NCBI GenBank assembly: GCA_964552325.1
Contig: CAZKHA010000003.1
Span: 671 to 64,670, forward strand
DNA length: 64,000 nt
Origin: an uncultured Bacteroidales bacterium
Lineage (GTDB): Bacteria; Bacteroidota; Bacteroidia; Bacteroidales; TTA-H9
Direction: 5' to 3'
The position numbers were made by a program, and so were the translations under genes. Under the pieces are notes generated by a model, which saw nothing but the letters and a program-made list of their open reading frames with translations, was not told the DNA's origin and searched no databases. Positions 29,902-60,507 of the stretch are shown piece after piece; the first letter of the stretch is position 1, and each line of letters begins with the position of its first letter.

Positions 29902-29919
29902 TATGCTGGCAATTGAAGA

Positions 29920-35946: not shown

Positions 35947-36089
35947 CGGTAGGTTATGCCAAAAAAGCCAAACTTGATACCGGCTTTGCGAGTCCAAACT
36001 TACGCAAAAACTTTGAAGTTGTAAAATGATTTTGCTGCTCTCAATATTATTTGTACTTTAGTGCATTCTTTCACGTCAATAGTATATGT

Positions 36090-36470: not shown

Positions 36471-36513
36471 TAGGTATTTGTAATTTTTAGTTGTGTTTGC
36501 TAACAACATTGGT

Positions 36514-36521
36514 TATATTTG
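36514..36521 (+). promoter_or_regulatory. Candidate -7 box (TATATTTG) for the Cache/PAS kinase
   Basis: TAnnTTTG match, 98 nt before the ATG at 36619. Confidence 0.3.
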
Positions 36522-36618
36522 TATAGGCAATTCATTGGTCAAAACAAAAGTCTAGGTTCATCCAATCATTTGGGTCAATGCGGCCCTAAGGTTAAATTTA
36601 AGGTTTAAATACTGGTAT

Positions 36619-40430: not shown

Positions 40431-41340
40431 GGAGGCTATGGTCTTTGTACATGCTGGCAATAAGTTCAATTTTTTCATCTTCAGGCTTGTACCCATCTAT
40501 CCAATGGATTACGGTACCGTTTTTTTCCATTCGCCTAAACCAGGTTGTTTGTCGTTTCGCGAATTGATGAATGGCTGTATTTAATGATTCAAATAGCTGG
40601 TTATAAGTTATATTACCTATTAAATAATGCGAGATGTACCGGTATTCAAGGCCATAAAAACCAAGCATCTCAACGGATACGCCTTCGTCAATTAGTTGTT
40701 TTACTTCCTCAACCATACCATTATCGAGCCTTTGCTTAAGACGATTGGTAATACGTTGCCTGATGGTTGAGCGTTCAAACTTTATACCTATCACAATCCC
40801 AGGTATTTCTATGGTTTTTTTTGGTGTATAGGTTTTAAGATAAGTTTGGATTTCGATTGCACGAACAAGTCGATCCAAATCCACACTATCGGTTGTGTTA
40901 TGAATTTCTTTAAAGGACTTAAGCCGTTCGATTAGCTGTTCGTTTGATAGCAAAGCAAGGCTACTTCTAAGTTCTTCATTTATAGGTACCTTAGGCAATT
41001 TGTAACCCTTTAGGGCAGCTTCAAGATACAAACCCGTTCCACCGCAAAGTATAACTTGTTTTGACCTGGAGGTAATGTTGTTATAGGCATTGTAAAAGTG
41101 CTCAAGAAAGTCAAAAACACTAAACTCCGAACCCGGTTCCGCGATGTCGAGTAAGTGATAAGGAATACGGACCCCGTTATAGGTATAATCTTCAATATCC
41201 TTACCGGTTCCAATATCCATACGCCTAAAAACTTGCCTTGAGTCGGCGCTAATAATTTCTGCACCAATACGTGATGCTACGCCTGCTGAAATACGCGTTT
41301 TGCCAGTAGCTGTGGGACCTAGGATGGTTAGCATGCTCAC
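40414..41340 (-). CDS. miaA: tRNA dimethylallyltransferase
   Basis: P-loop ILGPTATGKT, DSRQVFRRMDIGTGK, GGTGLY, and C-terminal AKRQTTWFRR. Confidence 0.9.
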   Translation of the reverse strand: MSMLTILGPTATGKTRISAGVASRIGAEIISADSRQVFRRMDIGTGKDIEDYTYNGVRIPYHLLDIAEPGSEFSVFDFLEHFYNAYNNITSRSKQVILCGGTGLYLEAALKGYKLPKVPINEELRSSLALLSNEQLIERLKSFKEIHNTTDSVDLDRLVRAIEIQTYLKTYTPKKTIEIPGIVIGIKFERSTIRQRITNRLKQRLDNGMVEEVKQLIDEGVSVEMLGFYGLEYRYISHYLIGNITYNQLFESLNTAIHQFAKRQTTWFRRMEKNGTVIHWIDGYKPEDEKIELIASMYKDHSLHDTKP

Positions 41341-43816: not shown

Positions 43817-45190
43817 TTATAAGCTCCTGAAAATCAATTTTCCTTGCATTGTATTATCGGGTAAATGATTGTTATTCACAAATTTACCATTAACAACACT
43901 GTGTAGGGGCAAGCCTTGGCTTTCGAAGCCTTCATAAATTGATGTGTCACATGATGATACCTGGTTTTTGGCTGAAATTATTTGGGTTTTGTTGAAGTCC
44001 CATATCACCAAATCTGCATCATACCCAGGGGCTATTCTACCTTTTGAAGTGAGTCCAAAGATGGAAGAAGGGTTTGTGGCCACTAATGCAACTAATTGGT
44101 TTATAGTTATTTTATTGGTTACTACCCCATATTTGTACATTAATTGGATTCGATTTTCAATACCTCCAGCACCATTAGGAATCAAGGTAAAATTGTTGCT
44201 GCCTTTATCTTTTTGGCCCACAAGGTTAAATGGGCAATGGTCAGTGGCAAGGGTTTGGATGGTTTGGTTTTGTATTCCCTTCCACAATGCTTCACTATGC
44301 TCCGAGCTTCGTATAGGCGGGCTAATTACATAAGGCGCTGCTTTAATAAATTCTTGATTATAAACATCTTCGTTCAGCAACAAATACTGAGGGCAAGTTT
44401 CGGAAAATACTTTAATTCCTTTCAATTGAGCATCTTTAATTAAGTCAACTGAACCTTTGGTAGATGTATGGACTATATATACTCGGCAGTTCGTTCGTTT
44501 GGCCAAATCAATTACACGTTCAACGGCAATTGATTCAACTTCGGGTGGCCTGCTCAGCGCATGGTACATAGGTGAGGTTTTGCCCTGACTTAAAAAACGA
44601 TGTTGCAGTCGTTCTATTTCATCACCCTCTTCAGCATGAACTGTAACTACACCACCATGATAACCAACTACCTGCATAATTTTTTCAAGATCAGGAATGC
44701 TTATTCCAATCGAGTTTTTATATGCAAGGTACACTTTAAACGAAGTAATTCCTTCATTTATAATGCAATGCTCAATTTCGAGCTTCAGTTTAGCATCCCA
44801 CCAAGTTACGCCCATATGGAAGCTGTAATCAATTATACTTGCTTGTGCCTCCTGTTTTCTTAACCGCAGGGCTTCGAGCAGCGATTGCCCTTTATTTGGG
44901 GTTACAAAGTCAATTATTGCGGTAGTACCTCCTGCAAGTGCAGCCTTACTACCATTTAAAAAGTCATCACATGAATATCCAGCCGGCGTAGGAAGGTGAA
45001 AATGCACATGTGGGTCAACCCCACCCGGAAGAACCGTAAAACCTGAGGCGTCAACTATTTCAATATCAGATGGTAATTGGCTCCCTAATGGTAACAAATC
45101 CAAAATTTTGCCACCAGAAAGATGTATATGTGCATTTTGGGTACAATCTGCGTTTACAACTAATGCATTGGTTATAATTAAGTTATCCAT
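43817..45190 (-). CDS. hyuA: D-hydantoinase/dihydropyrimidinase-type cyclic amidohydrolase (E. coli HyuA/YgeZ-like)
   Basis: GGVDPHVHFHLP metal motif, SFKVYLAY (carbamylated Lys region), VTVHAE, YIVHTST, ATDHCPF. By eye it is collinear with E. coli HyuA. The start overlaps ssnA by 8 nt. Confidence 0.85.
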   Translation of the reverse strand: MDNLIITNALVVNADCTQNAHIHLSGGKILDLLPLGSQLPSDIEIVDASGFTVLPGGVDPHVHFHLPTPAGYSCDDFLNGSKAALAGGTTAIIDFVTPNKGQSLLEALRLRKQEAQASIIDYSFHMGVTWWDAKLKLEIEHCIINEGITSFKVYLAYKNSIGISIPDLEKIMQVVGYHGGVVTVHAEEGDEIERLQHRFLSQGKTSPMYHALSRPPEVESIAVERVIDLAKRTNCRVYIVHTSTKGSVDLIKDAQLKGIKVFSETCPQYLLLNEDVYNQEFIKAAPYVISPPIRSSEHSEALWKGIQNQTIQTLATDHCPFNLVGQKDKGSNNFTLIPNGAGGIENRIQLMYKYGVVTNKITINQLVALVATNPSSIFGLTSKGRIAPGYDADLVIWDFNKTQIISAKNQVSSCDTSIYEGFESQGLPLHSVVNGKFVNNNHLPDNTMQGKLIFRSL

Positions 45191-46460
45191 TTTGCTGCAT
45201 CAATTTCCAAAGCTTCGTCGAAAGCTTCCTTGATTCCTGGAGTATTACAGTCTCATCAATTTTGGTGGCAACATAATTCTCAACAATTAACTTACCACTT
45301 GAAATAACATGTTGTATATGTCTAGATTCCAGTCCATAAAATACATGACCAACAAAATTGGCACTCGTAACCTCGGTCGGAGAATCATAGTCGAGTACAA
45401 TAAGGTTGTTATCTCCATCACCTATAAAGCCATTTTGGTTAATGTAATGATGCACATTTCGTAACCATTGATAAACCGTAGGCAGTTGGATACCATTTTG
45501 TGCATTTTGCTCGAGCCAAGTAATTCGAGCACTTCTCAGCATATCGCTATGCATTCCATCGGTACCAAGCATTATTTTTTGGCCGATGCCAGTTGGGTTA
45601 AACGAACCAACGCGATTGTTAAGATTACTGTCGGTGTTGATGGCTACATACGTATTTGATAAGCTAATTAGCTCTTTTTCAGTATCTGAAAGATGCAGGC
45701 AATGTGCAAAGATGTTTTTATTGAGTTCAAAAGCGCCAGCATTATAGAGCCGTTCACCTACGCTTTGTTTGTAGTTTTTTTGTGCATCATATTGATCAAC
45801 AGTATCTTCGGCAACATGGATATGGATTCCAGTCTGAAGTTTTGAAGCTAATTCAACTGCATTTTTCAAGGTTTCGTCACCAACCGTAAAGGATGCATGG
45901 AGCCCAACCAGCACTTGATTAATAGCTGAATACGCACGAGTTTCATCAAAAGCTTCCTGGGTTTTGGCATTGCCATACCTATCAGTGATTTCGTAGCACA
46001 ATAAGTGACTAACACCAACTAAATCAAATGCTTGTGCGATAATTTCGAGAGAGCCTTTTAAATAGTTTGGTGAAGCATGATGATCAATAACAAAGGTGCA
46101 TCCCCTTTTAGCACAAGCAATTGCGGTTGTAAGCGCACTTAATTGCACCATTTCGCGTGTTAGGCTTTTATCCAATGGCCACCAAATGTATTTTAAGGTT
46201 TCTTCAAAGTTGCTTGGGGCGATTTTGGGAGGTGTCATTCCTCTAGCCAATGAACTGTAAACATGGTGATGTCCATTGCCAAATGATTTGGTAATGAGCT
46301 TTCCGGTGCAATCAATAATTTGCAAGTTTTTTACAAACTGCAGGTTCTGAGGCTTTTCGAAGAGGATTTTTCCATTCGGGCCTTCCTCAACAAATACGTC
46401 AGCAGTTTTAAACTCCAAAGTTTTCCAGTCAATAAATGTTCCGTTTTTTAAGTGTATCAT
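45183..46460 (-). CDS. ssnA: SsnA-type aminohydrolase (chlorohydrolase/deaminase superfamily)
   Basis: GNGHHHVYSSLARGM, WWPLDKSL, FVIDHHASPNYLKGSL, HIHVAEDTVD and LGTDGMHSDM closely parallel E. coli SsnA. The start overlaps the hydroxylase stop (4 nt). Confidence 0.85.
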   Translation of the reverse strand: MIHLKNGTFIDWKTLEFKTADVFVEEGPNGKILFEKPQNLQFVKNLQIIDCTGKLITKSFGNGHHHVYSSLARGMTPPKIAPSNFEETLKYIWWPLDKSLTREMVQLSALTTAIACAKRGCTFVIDHHASPNYLKGSLEIIAQAFDLVGVSHLLCYEITDRYGNAKTQEAFDETRAYSAINQVLVGLHASFTVGDETLKNAVELASKLQTGIHIHVAEDTVDQYDAQKNYKQSVGERLYNAGAFELNKNIFAHCLHLSDTEKELISLSNTYVAINTDSNLNNRVGSFNPTGIGQKIMLGTDGMHSDMLRSARITWLEQNAQNGIQLPTVYQWLRNVHHYINQNGFIGDGDNNLIVLDYDSPTEVTSANFVGHVFYGLESRHIQHVISSGKLIVENYVATKIDETVILQESRKLSTKLWKLMQQNG

Positions 46461-49000
46461 TTTGTGCGTTTTAAAGGTAATTTATAACGACGAATTCCAT
46501 CATAATTGCATAATGCGTTTGCCACAGCAGCCGCAGTTGGTACTAATCCAATCTCGCCAAGACCTTTTGCTCCATACGGACCAATAGGATCGGCTACTTC
46601 AACGGGAAGTACGTTAATTTCTGGGGTTTCATGGGCTTTCAGAATACCGCAATCTTTTAGTTTTGTGCTCATTAAAAAGCCATTCTCCATTTCAAGGTCT
46701 TCAGTTAGTGCATAACCTAGGCCCATATGCACGGCGCCTTCTATTTGCCCCTCATAAAACACTGGGTTAATGATTTTACCTGCATCATGGGCTGCAACAA
46801 CTTTTTCGATGTTTCCTTGCTCATCCAACACCACTAATTGAGCGGCATAGCCATATGAATAGTGGGTAATTGATTCTTTGGTGAGGTCGCCGGGTTTAGT
46901 GGATTGATCGAACTGCCATCGCGCTTGGTATTTTTTCCCAATTAAGCCTGAAAGCGACTGGTTTTTAAGGTCTTCTTTGAAGGGTATGCAAGCTTCTTTT
47001 ATCGCATTGCCCAATAAAACGGTTGCTCTTGATGATGTCGTCATTCCGGTTTTTATGCCTGAAGCGGTATCTGTTTTAACTTCAATAAGTTGGGGGTCAA
47101 GCCCGGTTTCATGGCACAGGAACTGGATAGCCATGGTGTAGATTCCTTGTCCCATTTCGGTCCAGCCTTGGTGCAAAATAATCTTGGTTTCGGATTCAAT
47201 TTCAATGATAACATCCGAATAATCAATCATTCCATTACCAATACCACTATTTTTAATTCCGCAGGCTAATCCTGAGAAAGTGGCGTCAAGATAAAAGGGT
47301 TTCAGGGCATCTAGGCAAGCACGTATCCCAGCACCTTGCACTTTTTGGCCTGTGGCTGTTGTCAATCCATCCACCAATGCATTATCGTATCGGAATTGCC
47401 AATGATCGAAGCCTCCTTTTTTACAAAGTTCGTCCACGCAGCCTTCCAATGCAAAAGCAACTTGGTTAGCACCAAATCCGCGCATTGCTCCTGATGGAAT
47501 ATTGTTGGTATAAACGGTTAAGGCCTCCAAATCAATAACTGGTACATAATAGCCTCCTGTAGCATGTCCTGCAACACGTTCCATAACTTTTGTACCTACC
47601 GATGCATACGCGCCCGTATCGCCTATTGCCCTTAATTTAAGAGCAGTAAGCTTACCATTTAAATCACAGCTTAAAGTAATATCCATCCAAACTGGATGGC
47701 GTTTTGGATGCATACGAATGGATTCGGGCCGTGAGAGCGTTACCTTGACAGCTTGTTTAAGGGTAAAAGCGAACATAGCTGCATGTCCTTGAACACTCAA
47801 ATCTTCTTTACCACCAAAACCTCCGCCATTTGGCACAAGTATAACACGAATATTTGTTTCGGCAATGCCCAAAAGGCTTGCCAATTGTCGTTTATCTTCA
47901 TAAATGCCTTGTCCAGAAGAATATAACAAAATACCATCGGCCTCAGGCATTGCCACAGCCGATTCTGTTTCCATAAAGGCATGTTCAATTCGTTGGGTTT
48001 GGTATGATCCCGTTGCAACAAAAGCAGAGGATTTGATGGCACTAGCAGCATCACCTTTCCTCAAAATGCAGCTATCAAGTAAGTTGGCATGGTGATTATG
48101 CACTTGAATAGCATCCTTTTTGAGTGCAGCATGTACATCTGTAACAGCTTCAAGTACCTCATAATCAACTTTTATAAGGGAAACAGCCAATCTAGCTACT
48201 TTTTCGGTACTGGCTACCACACCAGCCAAAACATCGCCAATATAGTTGGTTATTTCGCCCGGTGCAATCATCAATGGCCAGTCATCGTATATTAAACCTG
48301 TGGTACGTTTTCCGGGTACATCCTTGGCTGTAAATACCTTAACAACTCCTTCAAGTTTTAACGCTTCTGAATAATCAATTGATATTACTTTTGCCCTTGG
48401 ATAATCGCTGAATTTTAGCGCACCATAAAGCATATTGTTGAATTTAAGGTCGTTAACAAACCTGCGTTTCCCTAAAGCTGTTTCAAAGGCTTCGTATTTT
48501 GGGTAGAAATTACCAACATTAGCGGCAGTAGTTTTATGTGGTTGAGCATCTCCTTTTGCCAATACTACCACCGATTCTTCAATCTTTTTGTAACCCGTGC
48601 ATCGGCAAAGATGTGACTTCATCGATGCCCTAATCTGATCGAGATTGGGGTTTGGATTGGTTTGCAATAAGTTCCTAATTCGCATGATGAAACCGGGAGT
48701 GCAAAATCCACATTGCACAGCGCCTTTTTCTACCATTACCCTGGCAATTTCATTCTTGATAGGGTCTGGAATTCCTTCAAGCGTAAACACCTCAGCGTTA
48801 TGTAACTTTTTAAGCGGCGTAACACAGCTTAAAGTCGGTTTGCCGTTAATCTCAACCGTGCAAGCACCACAGGCAGCTTGTGCTGAGCAGCCATCCTTTG
48901 CGGCAATTAAGTCCTTTTCTTCCCGTATAAATGACAAAAGGCTGATGGATTCATCACCTTCGTAGGTAATGGTTTCGCCATTGAGTCTAAAACTAATCAT
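46457..49000 (-). CDS. Single-chain molybdenum hydroxylase: 2x[2Fe-2S] fused to a xanthine-dehydrogenase/aldehyde-oxidase molybdopterin domain (XdhD / 'Se-dependent Mo hydroxylase 1'-like), no FAD domain
   Basis: CSAQAACGACTV and CGFCTPG...CRCTGY Fe-S motifs. a/b-hammerhead region, GGGFGGKE, and C-terminal MoCo-binding region (GLGEIG). 847 aa with an architecture like D. gigas aldehyde oxidoreductase. Confidence 0.85.
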   Translation of the reverse strand: MISFRLNGETITYEGDESISLLSFIREEKDLIAAKDGCSAQAACGACTVEINGKPTLSCVTPLKKLHNAEVFTLEGIPDPIKNEIARVMVEKGAVQCGFCTPGFIMRIRNLLQTNPNPNLDQIRASMKSHLCRCTGYKKIEESVVVLAKGDAQPHKTTAANVGNFYPKYEAFETALGKRRFVNDLKFNNMLYGALKFSDYPRAKVISIDYSEALKLEGVVKVFTAKDVPGKRTTGLIYDDWPLMIAPGEITNYIGDVLAGVVASTEKVARLAVSLIKVDYEVLEAVTDVHAALKKDAIQVHNHHANLLDSCILRKGDAASAIKSSAFVATGSYQTQRIEHAFMETESAVAMPEADGILLYSSGQGIYEDKRQLASLLGIAETNIRVILVPNGGGFGGKEDLSVQGHAAMFAFTLKQAVKVTLSRPESIRMHPKRHPVWMDITLSCDLNGKLTALKLRAIGDTGAYASVGTKVMERVAGHATGGYYVPVIDLEALTVYTNNIPSGAMRGFGANQVAFALEGCVDELCKKGGFDHWQFRYDNALVDGLTTATGQKVQGAGIRACLDALKPFYLDATFSGLACGIKNSGIGNGMIDYSDVIIEIESETKIILHQGWTEMGQGIYTMAIQFLCHETGLDPQLIEVKTDTASGIKTGMTTSSRATVLLGNAIKEACIPFKEDLKNQSLSGLIGKKYQARWQFDQSTKPGDLTKESITHYSYGYAAQLVVLDEQGNIEKVVAAHDAGKIINPVFYEGQIEGAVHMGLGYALTEDLEMENGFLMSTKLKDCGILKAHETPEINVLPVEVADPIGPYGAKGLGEIGLVPTAAAVANALCNYDGIRRYKLPLKRTK

Positions 49001-50238
49001 AAGAGGCTGTATTGTAAGTAATTATCAAGTGCGGTTGGAGTTGGTTCAATGGGTTCGGGTAGTTTAACTGCATTTAAAGCGGTCTTGAGGTCTTTTAATC
49101 CACTGCCTGTTAATAGTACAAGAGCACGAGAACCGTCTTTAAGTTGATTTTCGGTTTTGAACTTTAAAAAGCCCGCGTATGCTGCTGATGCAGCAGGCTC
49201 TGCAAATATGCCAGTGGTTTTGGCTAACAAACTCGAAGCTATAACTATTTCATGATCAGAAACATTAATTGCTTCTCCATTGTATGTCAGCAAGAATTTC
49301 TTAGCCATAAGGAAGTTCCTTGGAATATCAACCGAAATAGAATCTGCAAGGGTGGTTGCTGGTTCGTAAGCGAATGAATTACGTGTTAAATTGGTGTTCA
49401 AGTTGCAGCTTTGCGCAGATTGAACAGACACTATAGTCGGAATTTTTGATATTACACCAAGCTTCAATAAGTCTTCAAAGCCTTTATAAACACCTGCAAT
49501 AATTACTCCATCTCCCACAGGTACAAATATATAGTCGGGCAAATGCTCGCCAAAACGGTCGAAAATCTCAAAAGCAACGGTTTTTTTTCCTTCGATTGTA
49601 AACGGATTGTAAGCAGTGTTACGGTTATGCCAGCCAAAAATTTCGGTTGCCTTTAAACTAAGGTCGAATGCCCTGTCATAATTTCCTTTAACAAGCACAG
49701 GAATAGCTCCATACATAATTATTTGGACCAGTTTGGCCGACGGCACATTTTCTGGAACAATTATCACGGCTTTTTGACTTTGAGAGGCGCAAATACCTGC
49801 CAAAGAAGAACCGGCATTGCCTGTGGAAGCAGCAACTAAAATGTTGAGATCGTTTTCTTTGGCATAAGCTGAAACCAGCGCAGAAGCCCTGTCCTTAAAC
49901 GAGAAAGTTGGGTTTTGCGAATCGTCTTTAATAAAAAGTTCCACATTGGTGGATGCATCAATACTATAAACAGGGGTTTGTCCAACCCTAAGGTAACCAA
50001 AACTTTGCAATGATTGAATCGGCAATAAGTCGATAAACCCAGCTTGCTTTAACGAATTCCAGGTACTGGTTTGGTTTAAGGCTTTGATTTTATTGTAATT
50101 ATATACAGTTTTGAGTACACCAGCCGGAGGTTGGCCGTCTTTGTTCAGAGCAGCACATTTGGGGCAGAGGTACAAAAAGTTATCCGTATAAACTGCACCA
50201 CAATCTGTGCATTCAAAATGGTACTTAAGGCTGGGCAT
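48997..50238 (-). CDS. Threonine-synthase-like fold-type-II PLP enzyme with N-terminal zinc ribbon (function unassigned)
   Basis: CTDCG...CPKC ribbon, PLP-lysine motif FSFKDRAS, glycine loop ASTGNAGSSLAG. 413 aa. The stop overlaps the hydroxylase start (ATGA). Confidence 0.7.
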   Translation of the reverse strand: MPSLKYHFECTDCGAVYTDNFLYLCPKCAALNKDGQPPAGVLKTVYNYNKIKALNQTSTWNSLKQAGFIDLLPIQSLQSFGYLRVGQTPVYSIDASTNVELFIKDDSQNPTFSFKDRASALVSAYAKENDLNILVAASTGNAGSSLAGICASQSQKAVIIVPENVPSAKLVQIIMYGAIPVLVKGNYDRAFDLSLKATEIFGWHNRNTAYNPFTIEGKKTVAFEIFDRFGEHLPDYIFVPVGDGVIIAGVYKGFEDLLKLGVISKIPTIVSVQSAQSCNLNTNLTRNSFAYEPATTLADSISVDIPRNFLMAKKFLLTYNGEAINVSDHEIVIASSLLAKTTGIFAEPAASAAYAGFLKFKTENQLKDGSRALVLLTGSGLKDLKTALNAVKLPEPIEPTPTALDNYLQYSLL

Positions 50239-50249
50239 AACAAAAAGGT

Positions 50250-51716
50250 TTAGCTTAGTACGTCTGCATTAAAGGCTTCTATAAGCTCATCCCATCTGGC
50301 GGCTTGATTAAATAAACTAGGCCAAATGTTTTCGTCATACCATAATTGATTGATTTCATCTACCGTTTTGCCTTGTTGTTCAACCCATGTAAAGTATTTT
50401 AGGTTGTGTATTGCTTTACGGTCTTGATAACTAAGCTCTTTCATGTAATCAATTCCTGTTCCAAGCAGGCAGCGTTCATGGTCTTTACCGGCTTGCATCA
50501 AGGTATAGGTACCATTTTGTTCGCTAAGTTCGCTTAATCTTGATTGATACATTTCCATGCTGTCGGTAGCAATGGTTATTAGTACATCATTTTCATTCAA
50601 TTCAAAATACTTCGCTTGTTTTATGGCTCCAAGCAGGTTGGCCACGCCCGAGATTCCAATTTGAGCTAGGCTCTTGATGTATTCAGGTTCTAAGCCGCAC
50701 TCTGTCAGGTATTTAATGCCTTCAGGTTCGTTAAATAGTCGGATAATGCGCATGCAGTCCTCATCATCGATGGCAGTAACCAAATCGGTATTTTTAATAT
50801 TGTGCACCCAAGGTATATGCTTATCACCAATACCTTCGATACGGTGAGCACCAAAGCCGTTTTGCAATAAGGTCGGGCATTGCAAGGCTTCGGAAGCTGT
50901 TACTTTTATGTGAGGGAATTTCGTTTTTAGATAATCACCTGCGGCAATTGTACCAGCTGAACCAGTGTTGGATACAAAGCCAGCGAAGCGGCTAGAGGGT
51001 GTGCGCAATAGGTTGTAAATATCCTCGATGGCAGGGCCTGTTACATTATAATGCCAAACAGGGTTACCAAATTCGTCAAACTGGTTCAAAATGATGCAAT
51101 CAGGCCTTGTAGCCCGCATATGGTTACATTCGTCATAAATCTCCTTTACATTCGATTCACAACCTGGTGTTGCAATAATTTCAGAACCAATGCTTTTAAG
51201 CCATTCAAAACGTTCACGGCTCATTTCTTGCGGCAAGATGGCCACTGCCGTTACACCCATCAAATAGGAGTCAAAAGCTCCACCACGGCAATAATTGCCT
51301 GTTGATGGCCAAACTGCTTTATGATAGGTTGGATCGAAACCGCCTGTAATAATGCGTGGAGCCAAGCAACCATAGGCTGCACCTACTTTGTGAGCACCTG
51401 TAGGGAACCATTTTCCAAGCATCAATACAATCCGAGCCTTAACACCACTAATCGCTTCAGGAATTTCGATGTAATTTCCATTGCCATATAATCCCCCAAA
51501 GGGTTTGGCTTCATTTTTCCATGAGATTCGGAATAGGTTTGCAGGGTCTCTATCCCATAAACCTGTGGTTTTGAGTTTGTTTTTGATGGATTCAGGTATC
51601 AGTTCTGGGTTGCGCATTTGAGCAAAGGTAGGGAGCAGAATTCCCTTTTCTTTGAAACGTTTTACGGCTTTACTTCTGATTTCGTTATTAATAACGTGGT
51701 CAATTGTGGTTATCAT
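50250..51716 (-). CDS. Fold-type-II PLP-dependent enzyme (TrpB/CysK superfamily) with long C-terminal extension (function unassigned)
   Basis: The FPTGAHKVGAA lysine motif resembles the TrpB HTGAHK motif. STGNYCRGGA and NTGSAGTIAAG loops. 488 aa. Sits 12 nt after ygfK and 11 nt before the ThrC-like gene. Confidence 0.6.
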   Translation of the reverse strand: MITTIDHVINNEIRSKAVKRFKEKGILLPTFAQMRNPELIPESIKNKLKTTGLWDRDPANLFRISWKNEAKPFGGLYGNGNYIEIPEAISGVKARIVLMLGKWFPTGAHKVGAAYGCLAPRIITGGFDPTYHKAVWPSTGNYCRGGAFDSYLMGVTAVAILPQEMSRERFEWLKSIGSEIIATPGCESNVKEIYDECNHMRATRPDCIILNQFDEFGNPVWHYNVTGPAIEDIYNLLRTPSSRFAGFVSNTGSAGTIAAGDYLKTKFPHIKVTASEALQCPTLLQNGFGAHRIEGIGDKHIPWVHNIKNTDLVTAIDDEDCMRIIRLFNEPEGIKYLTECGLEPEYIKSLAQIGISGVANLLGAIKQAKYFELNENDVLITIATDSMEMYQSRLSELSEQNGTYTLMQAGKDHERCLLGTGIDYMKELSYQDRKAIHNLKYFTWVEQQGKTVDEINQLWYDENIWPSLFNQAARWDELIEAFNADVLS

Positions 51717-51728
51717 TGTTGTAAGAAA

Positions 51729-54700
51729 TTAGTTTTTACTTTCGTGGATATAAAGATGTTGCATACCTTCGAGCAGGACCATCAAGGTGGCTGCATTTTC
51801 AAAAAAGGCTGTTTTTACACATGGAACGCGTATTTCTACGGTTTTTAAGGAAAAATCGTTGCTGTGGAATTTTGCCAAAACCTCCTCGGTCTCATAGATG
51901 TATTCGTCTTTTTGTAAAGTCAAGGTTGTAAATCGCTCCTTATTTTTTTGGATAATGGTAGTTTTGCTCGGCAAGGTACTTATAAAGTAACCATTAGTAG
52001 CGTTGTTAAAGGATTTAATGCTCAGGAAAAAGTGTGGTTTTTCTTTGTAAGGAGCTGAATTACTGGGGCAAAATGTATTGCAATTCCCACATTCGTTGCA
52101 GAAATCGGCCAAATGGGCAATTTGGTGGTCTTGTTTAACTTCAAAGTGTTTATCGAAGCTAAGTACAATTTCATCTCCTTTTTTCTCGGCCTTTTGCAAT
52201 GCGATGGATCTTGTGGGTAATTGATAGGAATAATTGGCAAAGTTAGGGCAAACACTCACACATACATTACAGATTTTGTGGCAAAGCAAACAGCGGGATG
52301 CTTCGCTCATGGCCTCTGCTTGGGTGTTAATTACGGGCACTTGCTCGTCAATTTTTTTGTTAGCTACCATTAACGGACTTGTTCCCCGTTTGGCTTTTTT
52401 TATCAATAGATCTTGAACATCAATGTTGTAGTCAAATTTTATTGGCTGATTTAGGGTTAATCCAGCGGCTTGTTGTATTTGTTTAGCTGCTTTGCGTCCA
52501 TCGGCTATTGCCGAAATAATGTTGGATGCACCTTTACGTGCGTCGCCACCAATAAACACTCGGCTGAGCTTGGTTGCGTAGGTATCTTTTTCGGTAAGTA
52601 GTTGAGTATTATCAATAAAATTTATCGCAACTTCTTGGCCAATAGCGGGGAATACCAAATCTGCTTCTCGTACAAATTCAGAGCCTTCAATGGGCAGTGT
52701 GAGCAAACGTTTTTGTTGATAACTTCCAGAGGCTTGCATTTTGATGAACTTTAATCCGCTTACTTCACCAGATTTTGTAAGGATCTCGGTAGGGCTTACC
52801 ATTTCAATAAGATCTATCCCTTCAGCTAAGGCTGCCAAAATTTCTTCCGGTTCGGCAGGCATATCTTGTTTACGCCTTCTATAGGCTATGGTTACCTTGG
52901 CATCGGGTTGTGCGTATTTTTTAGCGGTTCGGGCCACATCCATGGCAGTGTTTCCACCACCAATTATAATAATCTGTTTGGCAGTTAATTGATAAGGATT
53001 TTCTTTGATTTTACTCAAAAAATCGAGTGGGTCCATTATCCCTTTTGCATCTTCGTTTGCTAAATTAAGTTTTCGTGTAATTGTAGCACCCGTAGCAATG
53101 TAAATGTAACTACCTGATTCATATACTGTTTTAAATAGTTGTGAATCTACCGTAACGCCATATTGTATTTTTACACCGCTTGCCATTATCCGATCTAAGT
53201 CGAGTTGAGTTTGTGCTTTACCGATTCTAAATGAGGGAATTACCTCAGCTACCATTCCACCGGCAAATGTTTTTTGTTCAAGAACCGTAACATCGAATCC
53301 AGCTAGGCGCATAAAGTAGGCACACGACAAACCCGAGGGACCTGCACCAATCACAGTTACTTGTCCTTTTGTAAAATCTTGATTGTATTTTTGAGGGGTA
53401 TGTTTTTGGTTTTCAGCAACAAAGCGTTTAACTTCACGAATGGCCAAAGCATTATCATAGTTAATGCGTGTACATTTCGATTGGCACTCGTGATCACATA
53501 CATTGCCCGTAATGATGGGTAATGGATTGGTTTGCAAAATTACCTCGTAGGCTTTCTGAAAATCTCCTTGAGCCGTATAATACATATAATCAGGGATGCC
53601 TTGATGCGAAGGACAGGTTGAAACACAGGGAGCGTGTATGCAATCGAAATAGTCGAGAGGTCTATTTACTTTAATATCAGGTTCTTTAAAGGCTTTTTGA
53701 TAATAAGGGTCATTACAAACAGCAGTACTGTAAGCATCTAAATTGCTTAGGTGGTTTTGGGATATGAACTGTGATAAGTTTTCACATTTTTGTTCATCAA
53801 GGGTTTGGTAAATGGCTTCAATATATTGATGTATTCTTGCGTAGCCACCGGGCTTTAAAAGATCGGAACAAACGGTTACAGGCGAGAGACCACACGATAG
53901 CACTTTGGAGATGTTTTGATAATCAATGCCAGCCGAAAAAGATATAGATAAGCTTTCTTTTATATCGTTGGAAATTTTATTGGCAACTGCAATTGATATT
54001 GGATGTAAAGACCTGCCACTCATATACATGTGTGGTTCGCTTTCTGGCAAAATATCCTTGTTGTTTAAACTTTCAAGCGTATTGGTAAGCTTTATGCCAA
54101 ATTCAACCCCTTCATTTTGCGCCAATAACCTTAAGCGGTTAAGAATTCCAATGGCATCCGCGTATTTTAAATCATGTTCAAAGGCAATATCCGGTACTTC
54201 GGTCTTGAAACCCAGCTTGTTGTTTAAGATTTCGGTAAGTTTTTCTTTACCCAGTAGGGTAGGGTTAAGTTTGATAACAGTATGCAGATTTTTAGTCGCA
54301 ATCAAATACTGCCCAATGCGTTCAATTTCATCGGGTGGACAACCGTGCATGGTTGAAAGCGTAATGTTATTTGAAATACGATCTGGAATAGTAATTTGCT
54401 CAATTTCTGGTACTAAATGCTTAATCTCCTTGATTTTGGCATCCTTCTCTGACTTGCAATCCTTCATTTTCTCAAAAAACCATTGCACATTTTGGTTTAG
54501 AATGCCTTCGAGGTTATACCCCACACTCATATTAAAAATTGTACCAATGGGCACATTGTTGTTTTTATTGAACCTAAAGTTCAGAATATGAATAATAATC
54601 CACGCATTTAGATACTGCTCAAACGATTCGTGTATTTTTAACTCTTGTGACCATTCGCAATTATAACCCTCATCCTGCATGTCGATACAAGGTTTCGTAA

Positions 54701-54977
54701 CATTCAATTCATCAAGGGTTTGAACGGTTTTAAGTTCAATAAAGCGGGCGCCACATAACCATGCCCCAACAATGTTTTGGGCAAGTTGCGAGTGGGGTCC
54801 GGCTGCAACACCTATTGGAGTATGCAAAGCTTGCTTAAAGTGCGTAGTAAATAACCTTGGGTCGTTTTGGGTAAAGAATCTTTCCGAAGGAATCCCAAAA
54901 TAAGTTCCGTTTTTCAATTGATTTAGTATTAAACCAAGTAAACGGTCGAGTGGTATTATTGAAAATGAATCAGTCAT
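51729..54977 (-). CDS. ygfK: YgfK-type large flavo-iron-sulfur oxidoreductase ('putative selenate reductase subunit YgfK' family)
   Basis: 1082 aa. N-terminal DHOD/DPD-like TIM-barrel region, Cys clusters (CIHAPCVSTCP; CDHECQSKCTR), GltD-like VTVIGAGPSGLSCAY and IIIIGGGNTAMDVA Rossmann folds. C-terminal 2x[4Fe-4S] ferredoxin (CLLCHKICNVCVSVCP; CNECGNCNTFCP). Confidence 0.85.
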   Translation of the reverse strand: MTDSFSIIPLDRLLGLILNQLKNGTYFGIPSERFFTQNDPRLFTTHFKQALHTPIGVAAGPHSQLAQNIVGAWLCGARFIELKTVQTLDELNVTKPCIDMQDEGYNCEWSQELKIHESFEQYLNAWIIIHILNFRFNKNNNVPIGTIFNMSVGYNLEGILNQNVQWFFEKMKDCKSEKDAKIKEIKHLVPEIEQITIPDRISNNITLSTMHGCPPDEIERIGQYLIATKNLHTVIKLNPTLLGKEKLTEILNNKLGFKTEVPDIAFEHDLKYADAIGILNRLRLLAQNEGVEFGIKLTNTLESLNNKDILPESEPHMYMSGRSLHPISIAVANKISNDIKESLSISFSAGIDYQNISKVLSCGLSPVTVCSDLLKPGGYARIHQYIEAIYQTLDEQKCENLSQFISQNHLSNLDAYSTAVCNDPYYQKAFKEPDIKVNRPLDYFDCIHAPCVSTCPSHQGIPDYMYYTAQGDFQKAYEVILQTNPLPIITGNVCDHECQSKCTRINYDNALAIREVKRFVAENQKHTPQKYNQDFTKGQVTVIGAGPSGLSCAYFMRLAGFDVTVLEQKTFAGGMVAEVIPSFRIGKAQTQLDLDRIMASGVKIQYGVTVDSQLFKTVYESGSYIYIATGATITRKLNLANEDAKGIMDPLDFLSKIKENPYQLTAKQIIIIGGGNTAMDVARTAKKYAQPDAKVTIAYRRRKQDMPAEPEEILAALAEGIDLIEMVSPTEILTKSGEVSGLKFIKMQASGSYQQKRLLTLPIEGSEFVREADLVFPAIGQEVAINFIDNTQLLTEKDTYATKLSRVFIGGDARKGASNIISAIADGRKAAKQIQQAAGLTLNQPIKFDYNIDVQDLLIKKAKRGTSPLMVANKKIDEQVPVINTQAEAMSEASRCLLCHKICNVCVSVCPNFANYSYQLPTRSIALQKAEKKGDEIVLSFDKHFEVKQDHQIAHLADFCNECGNCNTFCPSNSAPYKEKPHFFLSIKSFNNATNGYFISTLPSKTTIIQKNKERFTTLTLQKDEYIYETEEVLAKFHSNDFSLKTVEIRVPCVKTAFFENAATLMVLLEGMQHLYIHESKN

Positions 54978-55034
54978 GAAGTATTTGTTAAATAAAAGGC
55001 CAGTTTGTAAGGTGAATTTAGGCTAAAATTGTGT

Positions 55035-55072
55035 CCGAATACGTACTTTTGAAGTTTGCAATTCGGTTTTTT
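55035..55072 (+). other. Terminator-like hairpin plus T6 in the ygfK/mocA divergent intergenic region
   Basis: CCGAAT...(inner ACTT/AAGT)...ATTCGG followed by TTTTTT on the plus strand. No plus-strand gene lies upstream of it. Confidence 0.3.
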
Positions 55073-55145
55073 AAGCATTATCTTATAGGCGATTGAGATT
55101 GTAATGTGACGTCAAAACTTTTGTATGTGTTTAATTGTAAGTTAA

Positions 55146-55802
55146 ATGATAGAATATATGGAGAACTTTTCCACCGCTACAAAGCATTTGAATGCGGATA
55201 ATAGTGCAGTGCTTGTGTTGGCAGCTGGTAGGAGCCAACGGATGGGAAGCCCCAAATTTGCCTTGCAATTTACAAATAAACAGTCTTTTTTAGAGCGTAT
55301 TATCACTATTTACAGTAGTTTGCGTTTTGGGCAGATACTGGTTGTTATAAATTCTGATGATTGCAAGCATTCAATCTTATCGCATATCAAAGAACACTAT
55401 GGGCATATCCAAATTGTTGTAAATGAATATCCTGAAAAGGGTAGGCTTTATTCTGTTCAATTGGGTCTGTGCCAACTGACCAAACCTTTTTGCTTCGTAC
55501 AAAATGTTGATAATCCATTTATTAGCGAAAACGTGTTGAACAAGCTATTGGTTGAAAGCAACCCGTTCAGAATAGTAATGCCATGTTTTCAGGATAAAAA
55601 TGGTCATCCGATAGTTATTCCTGAACGTTATCACCAAGGTATTGTTAATGAATTAGCTACAGAAACTACGCTTAAAAAATGCCTTTCAGGCTTTCAAAAG
55701 CAACAGATAGAAGTGGATGACGAAAGTATTCTGCTAAACTTGAATACCCCAATGGATTATCAGCACTATTTTGGCCATCCACCCCTTCCTTGCATTGGAT
55801 AA
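55146..55802 (+). CDS. mocA: MobA-like NTP transferase, probable molybdenum cofactor cytidylyltransferase (MocA/YgfJ-like)
   Basis: VLAAGRSQRMGSPKFAL nucleotide-binding motif; ~200 aa. It is the only plus-strand gene inside the island. The start could be 55146 or the ATG at 55158 (MENFS). Confidence 0.65.
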   Translation: MIEYMENFSTATKHLNADNSAVLVLAAGRSQRMGSPKFALQFTNKQSFLERIITIYSSLRFGQILVVINSDDCKHSILSHIKEHYGHIQIVVNEYPEKGRLYSVQLGLCQLTKPFCFVQNVDNPFISENVLNKLLVESNPFRIVMPCFQDKNGHPIVIPERYHQGIVNELATETTLKKCLSGFQKQQIEVDDESILLNLNTPMDYQHYFGHPPLPCIG

Positions 55803-55814
55803 TTAATTGAATCG

Positions 55815-57005
55815 TTATTTTTTAACCCGTTGTATATTAGCGGCTTTTAAACGCGATAATAAATCGGCGGGGTTTTGGAAACGATTTGTAAGCATCATCG
55901 CAGCAATGATATATGGTTTATAACCAGCTTCTTTATAAGTTGCAATGCGATATTGTTCAAACACTTCGGCTGAAACCTCACCTTTTTTGCACGAAACATC
56001 TGTAATATCGGCAGGCAAGCAGTGCATATAAAGCGCTTTTCCGTGTTTGGTAAGGTTCATTTTTGTGCGGTCGCATTCCCAGTTTTGGTAGCGTGCATTA
56101 TTTGCAAGGCATTCTTTTTCGAGGCTCTTTAAACCATCTCGGTCGCTATTCTTCAAGAGTTCGGTCCTGCGTTCCATAACATGGAAGGGTGCCCAACTTT
56201 TAGGGTAAACAATGTCAGCGCCGTTAAAAGCTTCTTCCATCGAATTGACCACATTAAAGCTGCCACCGTATTGTTTTGCATGATTTTGAGCAACTTGTGT
56301 TATTTCTGGGATTAAGCCATACCCTTCGGGATAAGCCAGCGAAACATCCATACCCATGCGGGTCATCAATGTAATAATGCCTTGAGGAACCGATAGCGGC
56401 TTCCCATAACTGGGTGAATAGGCCCATGTCATCGCAATTTTCTTTCCTCTTAAAGCTTCCAACGACCCGAATTCATTGCGCAAATGCAATAAATCGGCCA
56501 TGGCTTGGGTGGGGTGATCTTGATCGCACTGCAAGTTTACGATACCCGGACGTTGTGGCAAAACACCGTTTGCAAATCCGTCTTCTAAAGCATCGGCAAC
56601 TTCTAGCATATACGAATGCCCTGCACCAAGGTACATGTCGTCGCGAATCCCGATTATTTCGGTTAAAAACGAAATCATGTTGGCTGTTTCGCGCACTGTT
56701 TCGCCATGCGAAATTTGTGACTTTTCTTCGTCCATGTCCTGAACCGTGAGCCCTAATAGATTGGAAGCGAATGCAAACGAGAAGCGTGTGCGGGTGGAGT
56801 TATCACGGAATTGAGAAACGGCTAAGCCAGATTCAAAGCACTTGGCTGAAATGTTCTGAGCATATAGAAACTTCAATGCTTCAGCAACCTGCATAACAAG
56901 CTCTAACTCTTGTTGTGTTTTATCCCAAGTTAACAGAAAGTCTTTATTAAAAAGATTGGCGTTTGTAGCTTCTATGTTTTGAATAAGCTGTTTGAAATCT
57001 TGCAT
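55815..57005 (-). CDS. ygeW: Knotted carbamoyltransferase YgeW
   Basis: 396 aa. FRDNSTRTRFSF, SQISHGETVRETANMISF, LQCDQDHPTQAMADL, WAYSPSYGKPLSVPQG and YMHCLPAD are nearly collinear with E. coli YgeW as I recall it. Confidence 0.9.
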   Translation of the reverse strand: MQDFKQLIQNIEATNANLFNKDFLLTWDKTQQELELVMQVAEALKFLYAQNISAKCFESGLAVSQFRDNSTRTRFSFAFASNLLGLTVQDMDEEKSQISHGETVRETANMISFLTEIIGIRDDMYLGAGHSYMLEVADALEDGFANGVLPQRPGIVNLQCDQDHPTQAMADLLHLRNEFGSLEALRGKKIAMTWAYSPSYGKPLSVPQGIITLMTRMGMDVSLAYPEGYGLIPEITQVAQNHAKQYGGSFNVVNSMEEAFNGADIVYPKSWAPFHVMERRTELLKNSDRDGLKSLEKECLANNARYQNWECDRTKMNLTKHGKALYMHCLPADITDVSCKKGEVSAEVFEQYRIATYKEAGYKPYIIAAMMLTNRFQNPADLLSRLKAANIQRVKK

Positions 57006-57038
57006 AATTATAGGTTTTATTCTGTGTGATTGTTAGTT

Positions 57039-58244
57039 TTATGATTCGTTGCTTAGTGAAAATGCAAACATGGTATAAAATGCCGATGCTACAACTAAGT
57101 CGTTTACAGGGACTTTTTCGTTGGGGGCATGGGCCATTACTTCGTTGCCGGGACCAAAACCAATAGTTGGTATTTTATGCATGCCATTTATGGCGACTCC
57201 GTTGGTTGAAAAGGTCCATTTATCAACTCTGGGCGCAGCACTATATAATAATGTATAGGCTTCAATACCTTTTTGAACTATTTCTGATGACTCTTCAATT
57301 TTCCAAGTAGGATAATACTTTTCCATACCATAATTCAAGCCTGTAAAGGCCTTTCCTTCGTAATACAGTACGCTAGCTTCGGCGTCGCTGCCAATTAGTT
57401 GGCTTACTTCATCCAAGGCACTTTGTTTGGTTTCGCCCCAGGTGAGCCTACGGTCAAGGTGCAAACGTGCAAAATCGGCCACAGCACAAAGTGATGGGCT
57501 GCCCGAAACAAATTCGGAAATCGTAACCGAGCCCTTGCCTAAGAAATCATCGTGTTTAAGTCGCTCGTTCAACTTTTCTACTTCCAAGGCAGCTTTTGAT
57601 GCGCTGTAAATGGCGTTTTTGCCACGTTCGGGTGCTGAACCATGTGCTGAAATACCCTTAAATGAAACGCTAATCTCCATGCGACCACGATGTCCGCGAT
57701 ACAATCCGAGATTGGTAGGTTCTGTGCTAATTACAAAGTGGGGCACAATTTTCTCTTCTTCAATAATATACTTCCAGCAAAGGCCATCACAATCTTCCTC
57801 CATAACGCTTGCTACAAAATATATTGTTAAGTCATTGGGGACGCCCAATTCTTTGATGATTTTACCGGCAGTTATAAATGAGGCTATGCCACCTTTTTGG
57901 TCAACTGTTCCGCGGCCATGTACAAATCCATCCGAGATTGCGCCCGAAAACGGATCAGAAGTCCAATTGGTAATATTCCCTACATCCACCGTGTCAATAT
58001 GACCATCGATAGCTAGGATTGTTTTTCCACTGCCAATGCGCCCGATTACATTTCCCAGGCCATCCATTCTAACTTCATCAAAACCAGCTTCTTTCATAAG
58101 TTGCATGGCTAATGCTTGTACGTTGGCCTCTTCGCCGCTGAGCGATTTTACTTTTACAAGTTCCGAAAGGTTTTTTGCAGTGTAATCTCTATAAAGCTTA
58201 GATAACTCATTTATTTTTAATGCAATAGAAGTTTTAATATCCAT
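57039..58244 (-). CDS. ygeY: YgeY-type M20/DapE-family metallohydrolase ('putative selenium metabolism hydrolase')
   Basis: 401 aa. DGHIDTV, RGTVDQKGG, EEDCDGLCWKYIIEE, YRGHRGRMEI, HGSAPERGKNAI, DRRLTWGE, KWTFSTNG and AHAPNE parallel E. coli YgeY. Confidence 0.9.
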   Translation of the reverse strand: MDIKTSIALKINELSKLYRDYTAKNLSELVKVKSLSGEEANVQALAMQLMKEAGFDEVRMDGLGNVIGRIGSGKTILAIDGHIDTVDVGNITNWTSDPFSGAISDGFVHGRGTVDQKGGIASFITAGKIIKELGVPNDLTIYFVASVMEEDCDGLCWKYIIEEEKIVPHFVISTEPTNLGLYRGHRGRMEISVSFKGISAHGSAPERGKNAIYSASKAALEVEKLNERLKHDDFLGKGSVTISEFVSGSPSLCAVADFARLHLDRRLTWGETKQSALDEVSQLIGSDAEASVLYYEGKAFTGLNYGMEKYYPTWKIEESSEIVQKGIEAYTLLYSAAPRVDKWTFSTNGVAINGMHKIPTIGFGPGNEVMAHAPNEKVPVNDLVVASAFYTMFAFSLSNES

Positions 58245-58294
58245 TATTAAGTGGTTTTAGGTGCTTGATTCAAAATTTTTTAGAAAAAGGACAC

Positions 58295-58302
58295 CAAAGT
58301 TA
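58295..58302 (-). promoter_or_regulatory. Candidate -7 box (TAACTTTG) for ygeY-ygeW
   Basis: TAnnTTTG match on the minus strand, 51 nt upstream of the ATG at 58244. Confidence 0.4.
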
Positions 58303-58362
58303 CGGACTTTATTCGCAGAATGTTTTTTTTGCAAAAACTTGTTGTGCAATTGGGTTTGTTCC

Positions 58363-58370
58363 TACATTTG
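58363..58370 (+). promoter_or_regulatory. Candidate -7 box (TACATTTG) for the adhesin-like gene
   Basis: TAnnTTTG match only 9 nt before the ATG at 58379, implying a very short or absent leader. Confidence 0.3.
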
Positions 58371-58378
58371 TTCGACCT

Positions 58379-60427: not shown

Positions 60428-60501
60428 GGTCCGGTAGCTCAGTTGGATAGAGCAGCAGCCTTCTAAGCTGCGGGTCGTGGGTTCGAATCCCGCCCGGATC
60501 A
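60428..60501 (+). tRNA. tRNA-Arg (anticodon TCT)
   Basis: Hand-folded cloverleaf of 74 nt. Acceptor GGTCCGG/CCGGATC, D-arm GCTC-AGTTGGATA-GAGC, anticodon arm GCAGC-CTTCTAA-GCTGC, variable GGGTC, T-arm GTGGG-TTCGAAT-CCCGC, discriminator A. Confidence 0.9.
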
Positions 60502-60507
60502 CTGGCG

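Follow-up and report, generated by a model that had tools for sequence, protein, structure and literature searches.

The anaerobic route from urate to pyruvate has recently been reconstituted as a whole pathway (Liu et al. 2025, bioRxiv 10.1101/2025.04.24.650524; Li et al., Life Metab 2025, PMC12507026), and it is the frame within which we analyze here a nine-gene cluster of 14.4 kb from an uncultured Bacteroidales bacterium of the lineage TTA-H9. The cluster occupies positions 43817-58244 of a 64,000-nucleotide stretch of assembly GCA_964552325.1 (contig CAZKHA010000003.1, positions 671 to 64,670), which we call the window. In the described pathway, urate is converted to 2,8-dioxopurine by XdhAC/DOPDH or XdhD-YgfM, YgfK (DOPOR) reduces 2,8-dioxopurine to its dihydro form, SsnA opens the latter to ureidomethyl-hydantoin, and HyuA produces 2,3-diureidopropionate; YgeW then yields carbamoyl phosphate, with ATP gained through YqeA, and a mono-ureido intermediate that is converted by YgeY to 2,3-diaminopropionate and by YgeX to pyruvate and ammonia (10.1101/2025.04.24.650524; PMC12507026). 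A first-pass annotation of the cluster, made from the sequence alone, had proposed an anaerobic catabolic system for purine- or urate-type N-heterocycles in a Bacteroidota setting, a proposal with which family models, synteny across Bacteroidales and the literature agree. Its statement that most individual steps were incompletely assigned is outdated, since the two 2025 studies assigned every one of them.

The E. coli cluster (ygeW-ygeX-ygeY-hyuA-yqeA ... mocA-ygfK-ssnA-ygfM-xdhD; PMC12507026) has in common with our locus YgeW, YgeY, HyuA, YgfK, an SsnA-type and a MocA-type protein, and a fused hydroxylase with Fe-S centers and molybdenum cofactor (Moco). It differs in carrying YgeX, YqeA, YgfM, YqeB/YqeC, permeases and the sigma-54 regulator YgeV, none of which lies in the window, whereas the present locus has a hydroxylase of the TIGR03311 type, two extra pyridoxal phosphate (PLP) enzymes of 413 and 488 residues (PLP413 and PLP488), and another gene order, in which ygeY and ygeW form a unit of their own, as had been recognized at the outset. 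XdhAC of C. sporogenes resembles our hydroxylase in its described domain make-up, having Fe-S and Moco centers, no use of NAD(P)H and no flavin adenine dinucleotide (FAD) partner; the pathway of that organism employs the same hydrolase and carbamoyltransferase families, and there too carbamate kinase can be encoded outside the cluster, but YgeX is included, selenium dependence has been shown, and PLP413 and PLP488 are not described (10.1101/2025.04.24.650524). With the neighborhood of selenium-dependent molybdenum hydroxylases delineated by Haft and Self (2008, PMC2276186) the locus shares the markers ygeW, ygeY, ygfK, ssnA, ygfJ/mocA and the TIGR03311 hydroxylase, but the 64-kb window lacks selD, yqeB and yqeC, the accessory genes that define that neighborhood. 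Published surveys assign the pathway chiefly to Bacillota, Pseudomonadota, Fusobacteriota and Actinomycetota and report it absent from gut Bacteroidetes. Studies from 2022-23, which had been accurately summarized in the first reading as centered on Firmicutes, Fusobacteria and Proteobacteria, found urate consumers in these groups and in Actinobacteria, described them as "notably absent in Bacteroidetes", and saw growth on urate in none of six Bacteroides strains.

In our reading the locus most likely carries the reductive 2,8-dioxopurine pathway in a form native to Bacteroidales, one that would convert urate to pyruvate, ammonia, CO2 and carbamoyl phosphate with PLP413 replacing YgeX. Families were assigned with NCBIfam profile models and their curated cut-offs, supplemented by Pfam, and scores are given in bits; catalytic roles are carried over from what was shown biochemically in 2025 for E. 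coli, C. difficile and C. sporogenes. The seven families named initially had been expected to pass such tests, and five did: YgeW (NF005538, 682.2 against a cut-off of 453; TIGR03316, 638 against 500), YgeY (NF009555, 501.5 against 321; TIGR03526, 484.7 against 321.5), YgfK (TIGR03315, 891.4 against 835.3, with Pfam domains Fer4_20 and Pyr_redox_2), the hydantoinase HyuA (TIGR02033 for D-hydantoinase/dihydropyrimidinase, 473.6 against 393.25) and, narrowly, the hydroxylase (TIGR03311, 852.4 against 830.45). The SsnA and MocA candidates failed and are considered below. For the hydroxylase, the original designation as XdhD-type has to be abandoned, its score with the model for the E. coli XdhD type (TIGR03313) being 197.9 against a cut-off of 1101.9. 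Its Pfam domains are Fer2_2, Ald_Xan_dh_C, MoCoBD_1 and MoCoBD_2, with no FAD domain, and eight cysteines form two 2Fe-2S patterns, C-x5-C-x2-C-x11-C (C38/44/47/59) and C-x2-C-x31-C-x-C (C97/100/132/134). In HyuA the motifs DPHVHF, SFKVY, VHAE, IVH and TDH align with those of the E. coli protein. We presume that they supply the metal ligands, namely HxH, a carboxylated lysine, two histidines and an aspartate. Presumed catalytic or cofactor motifs are likewise kept in the hydroxylase, the SsnA-like protein and both PLP proteins. The high similarity to E. coli noted by eye holds for YgeW (67% identity to the K-12 protein) and YgeY (50%), but not for the other five, which range from HyuA (38%) and YgfK (36% over 1043 aa) through SsnA (31%) to the hydroxylase (24%, to XdhD) and MocA (23%). 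A 2,8-dioxopurine cluster comprises the hydroxylase, YgfK, SsnA, HyuA, YgeW (or UacY), YgeY and YgeX, with carbamate kinase as an optional member. Six of these eight components are present here, SsnA only as an SsnA-like protein, and the two that the window lacks are YgeX and carbamate kinase.

The open reading frame (ORF) coordinates confirm the nine consecutive genes, with their strands, their overlaps of 8, 4 and 4 nt and their gaps of 11 and 12 nt, as initially reported:

57039-58244, minus strand: ygeY, M20 metallohydrolase, 401 aa
55815-57005, minus strand: ygeW, knotted carbamoyltransferase, 396 aa
55146-55802, plus strand: MobA/MocA-like NTP transferase, 218 aa, divergent from ygfK
54978-55145: spacer of 168 nt separating the divergent genes ygfK and mocA-like, presumed to hold promoters
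51729-54977, minus strand: ygfK, Fe-S flavoprotein, 1082 aa, heading the six-gene unit
50250-51716, minus strand: PLP488, PLP enzyme of the CysK/CBS fold, 488 aa
48997-50238, minus strand: PLP413, threonine-synthase-like PLP enzyme, 413 aa
46457-49000, minus strand: single-chain hydroxylase with two 2Fe-2S centers and Moco, 847 aa
45183-46460, minus strand: SsnA-like amidohydrolase, 425 aa
43817-45190, minus strand: hyuA, D-hydantoinase/dihydropyrimidinase type, 457 aa, closing the six-gene unit

We propose three transcription units, ygeY-ygeW, the mocA-like gene, and ygfK-PLP488-PLP413-xdh-ssnA-hyuA. Within the last of these the junctions from ygfK to hyuA measure 12, 11, -4, -4 and -8 nt, and because of this tight spacing translational coupling is suggested. 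ORFs on the opposite strand at 43944-44333, 48645-48965, 53926-54591, 56414-56749 and 57610-58002 are nested in coding genes and were treated as shadows.

In the scheme that we propose for the locus, the 847-aa Fe-S/Moco hydroxylase would remove the 6-oxo group of urate to give 2,8-dioxopurine, making it a candidate 2,8-dioxopurine dehydrogenase (DOPDH), or urate 6-dehydroxylase. The MocA-like transferase would presumably complete its Moco by cytidylyl transfer, and, as in clostridial XdhAC, electrons would have to come from a donor other than an FAD partner. YgfK would reduce the purine ring with NAD(P)H, the SsnA-like amidohydrolase would open dihydro-2,8-dioxopurine to ureidomethyl-hydantoin, and HyuA would open the hydantoin ring to 2,3-diureidopropionate. 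Phosphorolysis of one carbamoyl group by YgeW could then provide carbamoyl phosphate, and ATP by way of a carbamate kinase encoded elsewhere in the genome, after which YgeY would hydrolyze the second ureido group to leave 2,3-diaminopropionate. The final deamination to pyruvate, performed in E. coli by YgeX, would fall to PLP413. PLP488 may act at the same amino-acid stage, as a beta-lyase, beta-replacement enzyme or racemase on diaminopropionate or 3-ureidoalanine.

The two PLP genes had been left unexplained in the first reading, which also missed the absence of YgeX and carbamate kinase, and it is here that new content lies: the pathway itself is already known, and what is new is the PLP413/PLP488 pair and a divergent clade of SsnA-like proteins. 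PLP413 scores below every threonine synthase (ThrC) cut-off (TIGR00260, 154.1 against 167.1), although B. subtilis ThrC is its best match in the PDB (E = 2e-47) and the top matches of the fold search are ThrC structures (AlphaFold2 (AF2) model, pLDDT 81). With ThrC (PDB 6CGQ, 1UIM) it shares the fold, the PLP lysine motif SFKDR, the ASTGN loop and 30-32% identity, and it differs in an added N-terminal CxxC...CxxC zinc ribbon and in its purine-catabolic context. In a HMMER alignment, Arg160 and Asn188 of T. thermophilus ThrC, an Arg and Asn kept in all four solved ThrCs, correspond to Thr214 and Asp243 of PLP413. We take these two ThrC residues to be phosphate ligands. An alignment of 48 PLP413 homologues, drawn from clusters of many phyla, has Asp at the Asn position throughout; at the Arg position 44 of them carry Thr, and the other four, which are Planctomycete-type proteins, carry Leu. 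Because both positions are changed and the scores lie below the ThrC cut-offs, PLP413 does not appear to be a threonine synthase, and an acidic residue at the Asn position would suit a substrate with a cationic beta-amino substituent.

Neither PLP protein matches the YgeX models NF006058 and TIGR01747, and tblastn of E. coli YgeX against the window returned at best 26% identity over 101 aa; bona fide YgeX proteins in other loci score 395-438 against the NF006058 cut-off of 276. A PLP488 alignment was scanned against one genome per GTDB species, giving at least 584 carrier species, and against metagenomes; 84 genome-set loci and 80 metagenome loci yielded 162 non-redundant loci. PLP413 without YgeX occurs in 80 of these, YgeX without PLP413 in 6, and both in none (Fisher p = 0.028), and where at least two core pathway genes are present the corresponding numbers are 58, 4 and 0 (p = 0.003); with just six YgeX loci, and with loci that are phylogenetically non-independent, this exclusivity is suggestive rather than proof. 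The simplest reading of these sequence comparisons is that PLP413 is probably a non-orthologous replacement of YgeX. It directly adjoins PLP488 in 37 of the 84 genome-set loci, and in other architectures it lies within the same run of lower-pathway genes as PLP488, YgeY, YgeW and carbamate kinase. One such arrangement was seen on five metagenome contigs (L135, L137, L139, L149 and L154), where the order is FAD subunit, Mo subunit, PLP488, YgeY, a divergent YgeW-like protein (~40% identical), carbamate kinase and PLP413, so that the two PLP genes bracket those for ureido cleavage.

PLP488 carries the PALP domain only. It scores 105.9 with the CysK model TIGR01139 (cut-off 350.95), its best PDB matches are O-acetylserine sulfhydrylases (E = 2e-24), and the fold search gave a target-normalised TM-score of ~0.78 (AF2 model, pLDDT 71). 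PLP488 has ~25% identity to the CysK, CBS and beta-cyanoalanine synthase enzymes and shares with them its core fold, its PLP lysine, the Asn loop that binds the carboxylate, a Gln and a Ser. Unlike CysK, PLP488 has conserved extensions of ~70-90 aa at each end, in which a Pfam search found no domain, six invariant cysteines, and an association with purine catabolism. Invariance extends beyond these cysteines to the PLP lysine K110, to the loop S138-T139-G140-N141 and to Q212, and the conserved Ser is expected to face the pyridine nitrogen. We conclude that PLP488 probably works late in the pathway, its substrate being an alpha-amino acid whose beta substituent is a leaving group. Across more than 15 phyla the protein keeps 55-75% identity, a conservation on a par with that of YgeW and YgeY and greater than that of the other cluster proteins, and it accompanies clusters of the PLP413 type and the YgeX type alike. 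Most PLP488 loci are purine clusters; in Bacteroidota the gene neighbors YgfK and PLP413, in Clostridia, Aminicenantes and Spirochaetes SsnA and HyuA, and in other metagenomic loci YgeW, YgeY and carbamate kinase. A different context, conserved and not related to purines, was observed in four loci of Elusimicrobia (L062, L070, L073 and L081), in which PLP488 stands with a ~320-aa protein, a CpXC protein, a protein of the poly(A)-polymerase family and a PAS/GAF hybrid kinase, and which suggests a PLP488 substrate beyond purine breakdown.

A more far-reaching reading, which we offer tentatively and would place somewhat short of probable, is that PLP413 and PLP488 constitute an undescribed lower branch of the anaerobic purine pathway, distributed over hundreds of species and more than 15 phyla. 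PLP413 would then be a diaminopropionate ammonia-lyase derived from ThrC, and PLP488 a new enzyme acting on D/L-diaminopropionate or 3-ureidoalanine; it may, for example, be a racemase, a urea- or ammonia-lyase, or a beta-replacement enzyme channelling the C3 unit of the purine into serine or cysteine. We found no mention of the extra PLP enzymes, or of a Bacteroidota version of the cluster, in the 2025 papers of Liu et al. and Li et al., the published version, the commentary, the bioinformatic papers of 2008 and 2013 or the 2022 preprints, and the supplements of Liu et al., a set that may be incomplete, hold no Bacteroidota entries.

The Bacteroidota setting, which had seemed unusual, is so in the literature searched but not in genome databases, where the same operon is present in at least 40 Bacteroidota species-level genomes. 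The cluster is thus common in the phylum, and the same literature yielded no functional assignment for it there. Among the best 80 of the at least 584 carriers, about half belong to Bacteroidales, Lentimicrobiaceae, Prolixibacteraceae, Rikenellaceae, Salinivirgaceae or Saprospiraceae. In 44 Bacteroidota loci, where the contig permits the comparison, YgfK lies directly upstream of PLP488 in 29 of 35 and PLP413 directly downstream in 34 of 37, and 11 Bacteroidota loci have a MocA-like homologue divergent at this same place, as does Lentimicrobium sp. L6, a member of the Bacteroidales that has the full nine-gene set in the same layout. The closest relative among the matches listed, GCA_964550695.1 (L002), has the same nine genes between the same flanks, with a PLP488 that is 84% identical. 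Neighbors at other loci fit purine catabolism and include a second, three-subunit xanthine dehydrogenase (XDH), XdhC, a CDA-type deaminase, a xanthine/uracil permease and carbamate kinase. In seven loci (L029, L039, L041, L043, L046, L093 and L096) such a second XDH, with separate Fe-S and Mo subunits and in some cases an FAD subunit, was seen just upstream of ygfK. This second set in Bacteroidota loci parallels the XDH and DOPDH pair of C. sporogenes, whereas our window has the single-chain enzyme only. In a 3.75-Mb Bacteroidales genome (L001, 8829-9833), an IS110-family transposase was observed between ygfK and the PLP488 gene in an otherwise intact operon.

Several results weigh against the assignment of the locus to the 2,8-dioxopurine pathway. 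Family scans of the other ORFs in the window, together with tblastn searches of all 64 kb with nineteen E. coli proteins, revealed no carbamate kinase (YqeA), no purine or urate permease, and neither YqeB nor YqeC, and no scanned ORF matched SelD, which was not among the tblastn queries. The same searches found no YgeX, YgfM FAD subunit or guanine deaminase in the window. The SsnA-like protein lies below its cut-offs (NF005540, 335.9 against 444; TIGR03314, 297.8 against 455.5), as does the MocA-like protein (TIGR03310, 100.5 against 186.45), for which PF12804 (NTP_transf_3) scores 91 bits and the best NCBIfam match, the DVU_1551 NTP transferase, 112 against 315; MocA is still a near-best match for it, covering almost the whole protein. 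The model passed by the hydroxylase, TIGR03311, bears the name xanthine dehydrogenase (of the selenium-dependent type), and a call between DOPDH and XDH from the position of XdhD Glu606 was rejected, the alignment there being unreliable owing to an insertion in XdhD. Published screens saw no urate use in gut Bacteroides or Bacteroidetes, cluster-bearing taxa not being among those tested. To these points must be added the small and phylogenetically non-independent sample behind the PLP413/YgeX exclusivity and a sizeable minority of long non-Bacteroidota PLP488 loci with no pathway gene within 10 kb, because of which the role of PLP488 may be broader than this pathway.

As regards SsnA, it remains the best match of the SsnA-like protein over nearly the full length, and the motifs containing His and Asp align with those of E. 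coli SsnA. The survey of Li et al. was built on the SsnA family IPR017700 (PMC12507026). In six of seven sister clusters, from several phyla, the SsnA-like proteins likewise fall under the SsnA cut-offs, and their hydroxylases pass TIGR03311. If IPR017700 corresponds to TIGR03314, as we assume, this below-cut-off clade would explain why Bacteroidota are missing from that survey.

The low SsnA scores here and in the six sister clusters, the name of TIGR03311 and the two extra PLP enzymes without a counterpart in the solved pathway could also be taken to mean that the same families serve another substrate, whether a different N-heterocycle or xanthine entering through a true xanthine dehydrogenase, with the PLP enzymes processing a different ring-opened product. 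We regard this as unlikely: YgfK, HyuA, YgeW and YgeY match enzymes of the solved pathway at the equivalog level, the SsnA-like protein retains SsnA as its best match with aligned motifs, and PLP488 clusters exist that hold the complete canonical set including YgeX (e.g. L061 and L106). It is also possible that PLP488 serves in maturation instead, cleaving cysteine or selenocysteine to provide the Mo hydroxylase with its labile sulfur or selenium ligand and taking the place of the SelD/YqeB/YqeC route. Its unusual conservation, its six invariant cysteines, the presence of an H2S-producing enzyme among its CysK-fold relatives and its position beside the hydroxylase-SsnA block in several phyla would all suit such a function, and in the 164 related loci YqeB was found once, in a genome-set locus, and YqeC never, neither being labelled in the 80 metagenome loci. 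Yet PLP488 often stands beside YgeW, YgeY and carbamate kinase with no hydroxylase nearby, occurs alone in unrelated contexts, and has PLP413 rather than the hydroxylase as its most constant partner, which makes this role improbable in our view.

That the PLP genes encode an ordinary threonine synthase and an ordinary cysteine synthase, placed in the operon by chance, is what their source annotations and their nearest solved structures, ThrC and CysK, would imply, but this is hardly credible given that both proteins score below every equivalog cut-off, that the ThrC Arg and Asn positions are changed in every aligned PLP413 cluster homologue, that PLP488 has extensions absent from CysK and without a Pfam domain, and that the pair keeps its place in purine clusters of many phyla. 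Very little also speaks for a recent genomic island acquired from Firmicutes or Proteobacteria. A tRNA-Arg gene 2.2 kb to the right and the earlier reports of the pathway mainly in other phyla might point that way, but the GC content of the cluster (0.406, against 0.392 in the rest of the window), its GC content at third codon positions (GC3) and its tetranucleotide distance are all inside the spread of other 14.4-kb windows; the flanks have no integrase or mobility genes, and repeats in them, direct or inverted, do not exceed chance; the nearest homologues are found throughout Bacteroidota, as is this particular gene order; and identity to the E. coli proteins is only 23-67%. The cluster is native and lineage-typical, not a foreign island.

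Of the Bacteroidota promoter motifs claimed at first, matches to the consensus TAnnTTTG do occur upstream of ygeY and the mocA-like gene, but the window as a whole has no excess of the motif (87 occurrences against 90 expected). TAACTTTG at 58295-58302 on the minus strand, 51-58 nt upstream of the ygeY start, is a candidate Bacteroidota -7 element for ygeY-ygeW, and TACTTTTG at 55044-55051 on the plus strand lies ~95 nt before the mocA-like ATG. No perfect match is found on the ygfK strand of the 168-nt intergenic region; a further one between hyuA and the next gene is consistent with an operon end at hyuA. Scans for sigma-70 promoters and terminators gave no more sites than in shuffled sequence, and Rfam revealed no riboswitch or other RNA element in the cluster or in the ygfK/mocA intergenic region. 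An Lrp/AsnC regulator is encoded nearby in eight other Bacteroidota genome-set loci and is absent from this one.

The surroundings are those of an ordinary Bacteroidota chromosome on both sides, as had been surmised. The left flank consists of a 199-aa gene with weak HD similarity, OsmC, a GT2 transferase, MiaA and an SDR protein, and the right flank of a protein with an IgGFc-binding domain, tRNA-Arg, a TPR protein, Fmt and a TetR regulator; more distant genes encode SusG-type amylases, LpxR and a hybrid sensor kinase of the Reg_prop/Y_Y_Y type. A leftward extension of the cluster that might hold YgeX or carbamate kinase was rejected, the ORFs of 308, 407 and 131 aa being MiaA, the GT2 glycosyltransferase and OsmC. 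The tRNA-Arg gene (anticodon TCT) lies at 60428-60502 on the plus strand, unaccompanied by integrase or repeats. The called start of the 636-aa IgGFc_binding ORF (58265-60175, plus strand) is a TTG 20 nt from the ygeY start codon, which puts the candidate ygeY promoter inside the ORF as called; the homologue in the closest relative is shorter (598 aa), the alignment begins at residue 64, and translation probably starts ~40-60 codons further downstream. The SDR/epimerase ORF (39402-40496) and miaA (40414-41340, GTG start), which lie on the same strand, have 83 nt in common (40414-40496), one of the two starts probably being over-called. Elsewhere in the window, 9783-13269 holds a possible damage-response cassette, in which a Y-family polymerase (IMS, minus strand) is divergent from a LexA-like repressor of the HTH-XRE/peptidase-S24 type and which continues with a fusion of DnaQ-type exonuclease and GIY-YIG domains. 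Sensor kinases and hybrid two-component proteins are unusually dense (4998-9453, 20011-21279, 26241-31620 and 36051-39399), with six in 64 kb plus a stand-alone receiver; one of the six is a 1202-aa Reg_prop/Y_Y_Y hybrid typical of Bacteroidota.

Anaerobic degradation of urate by bacteria affects the urate balance of the host, and hence gout, as well as nitrogen recycling in uricotelic animals and in sediments. Our results indicate that a complete-looking version of the pathway is carried by many environmental Bacteroidales and by members of other phyla. A survey that uses the SsnA family as its marker would probably miss this version, because its SsnA-like protein lies under the family threshold, and counts of YgeX based on PF00291 would miscall it, because both extra PLP enzymes carry that domain. 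In databases PLP413 and PLP488 are now mis-annotated as threonine synthase and cysteine synthase, the former being the probable YgeX analogue and the latter among the most conserved proteins of the cluster. Should the two indeed form an undescribed lower branch, they would bear on the order of ureido cleavage and on the stereochemistry, questions that the field itself lists as open.

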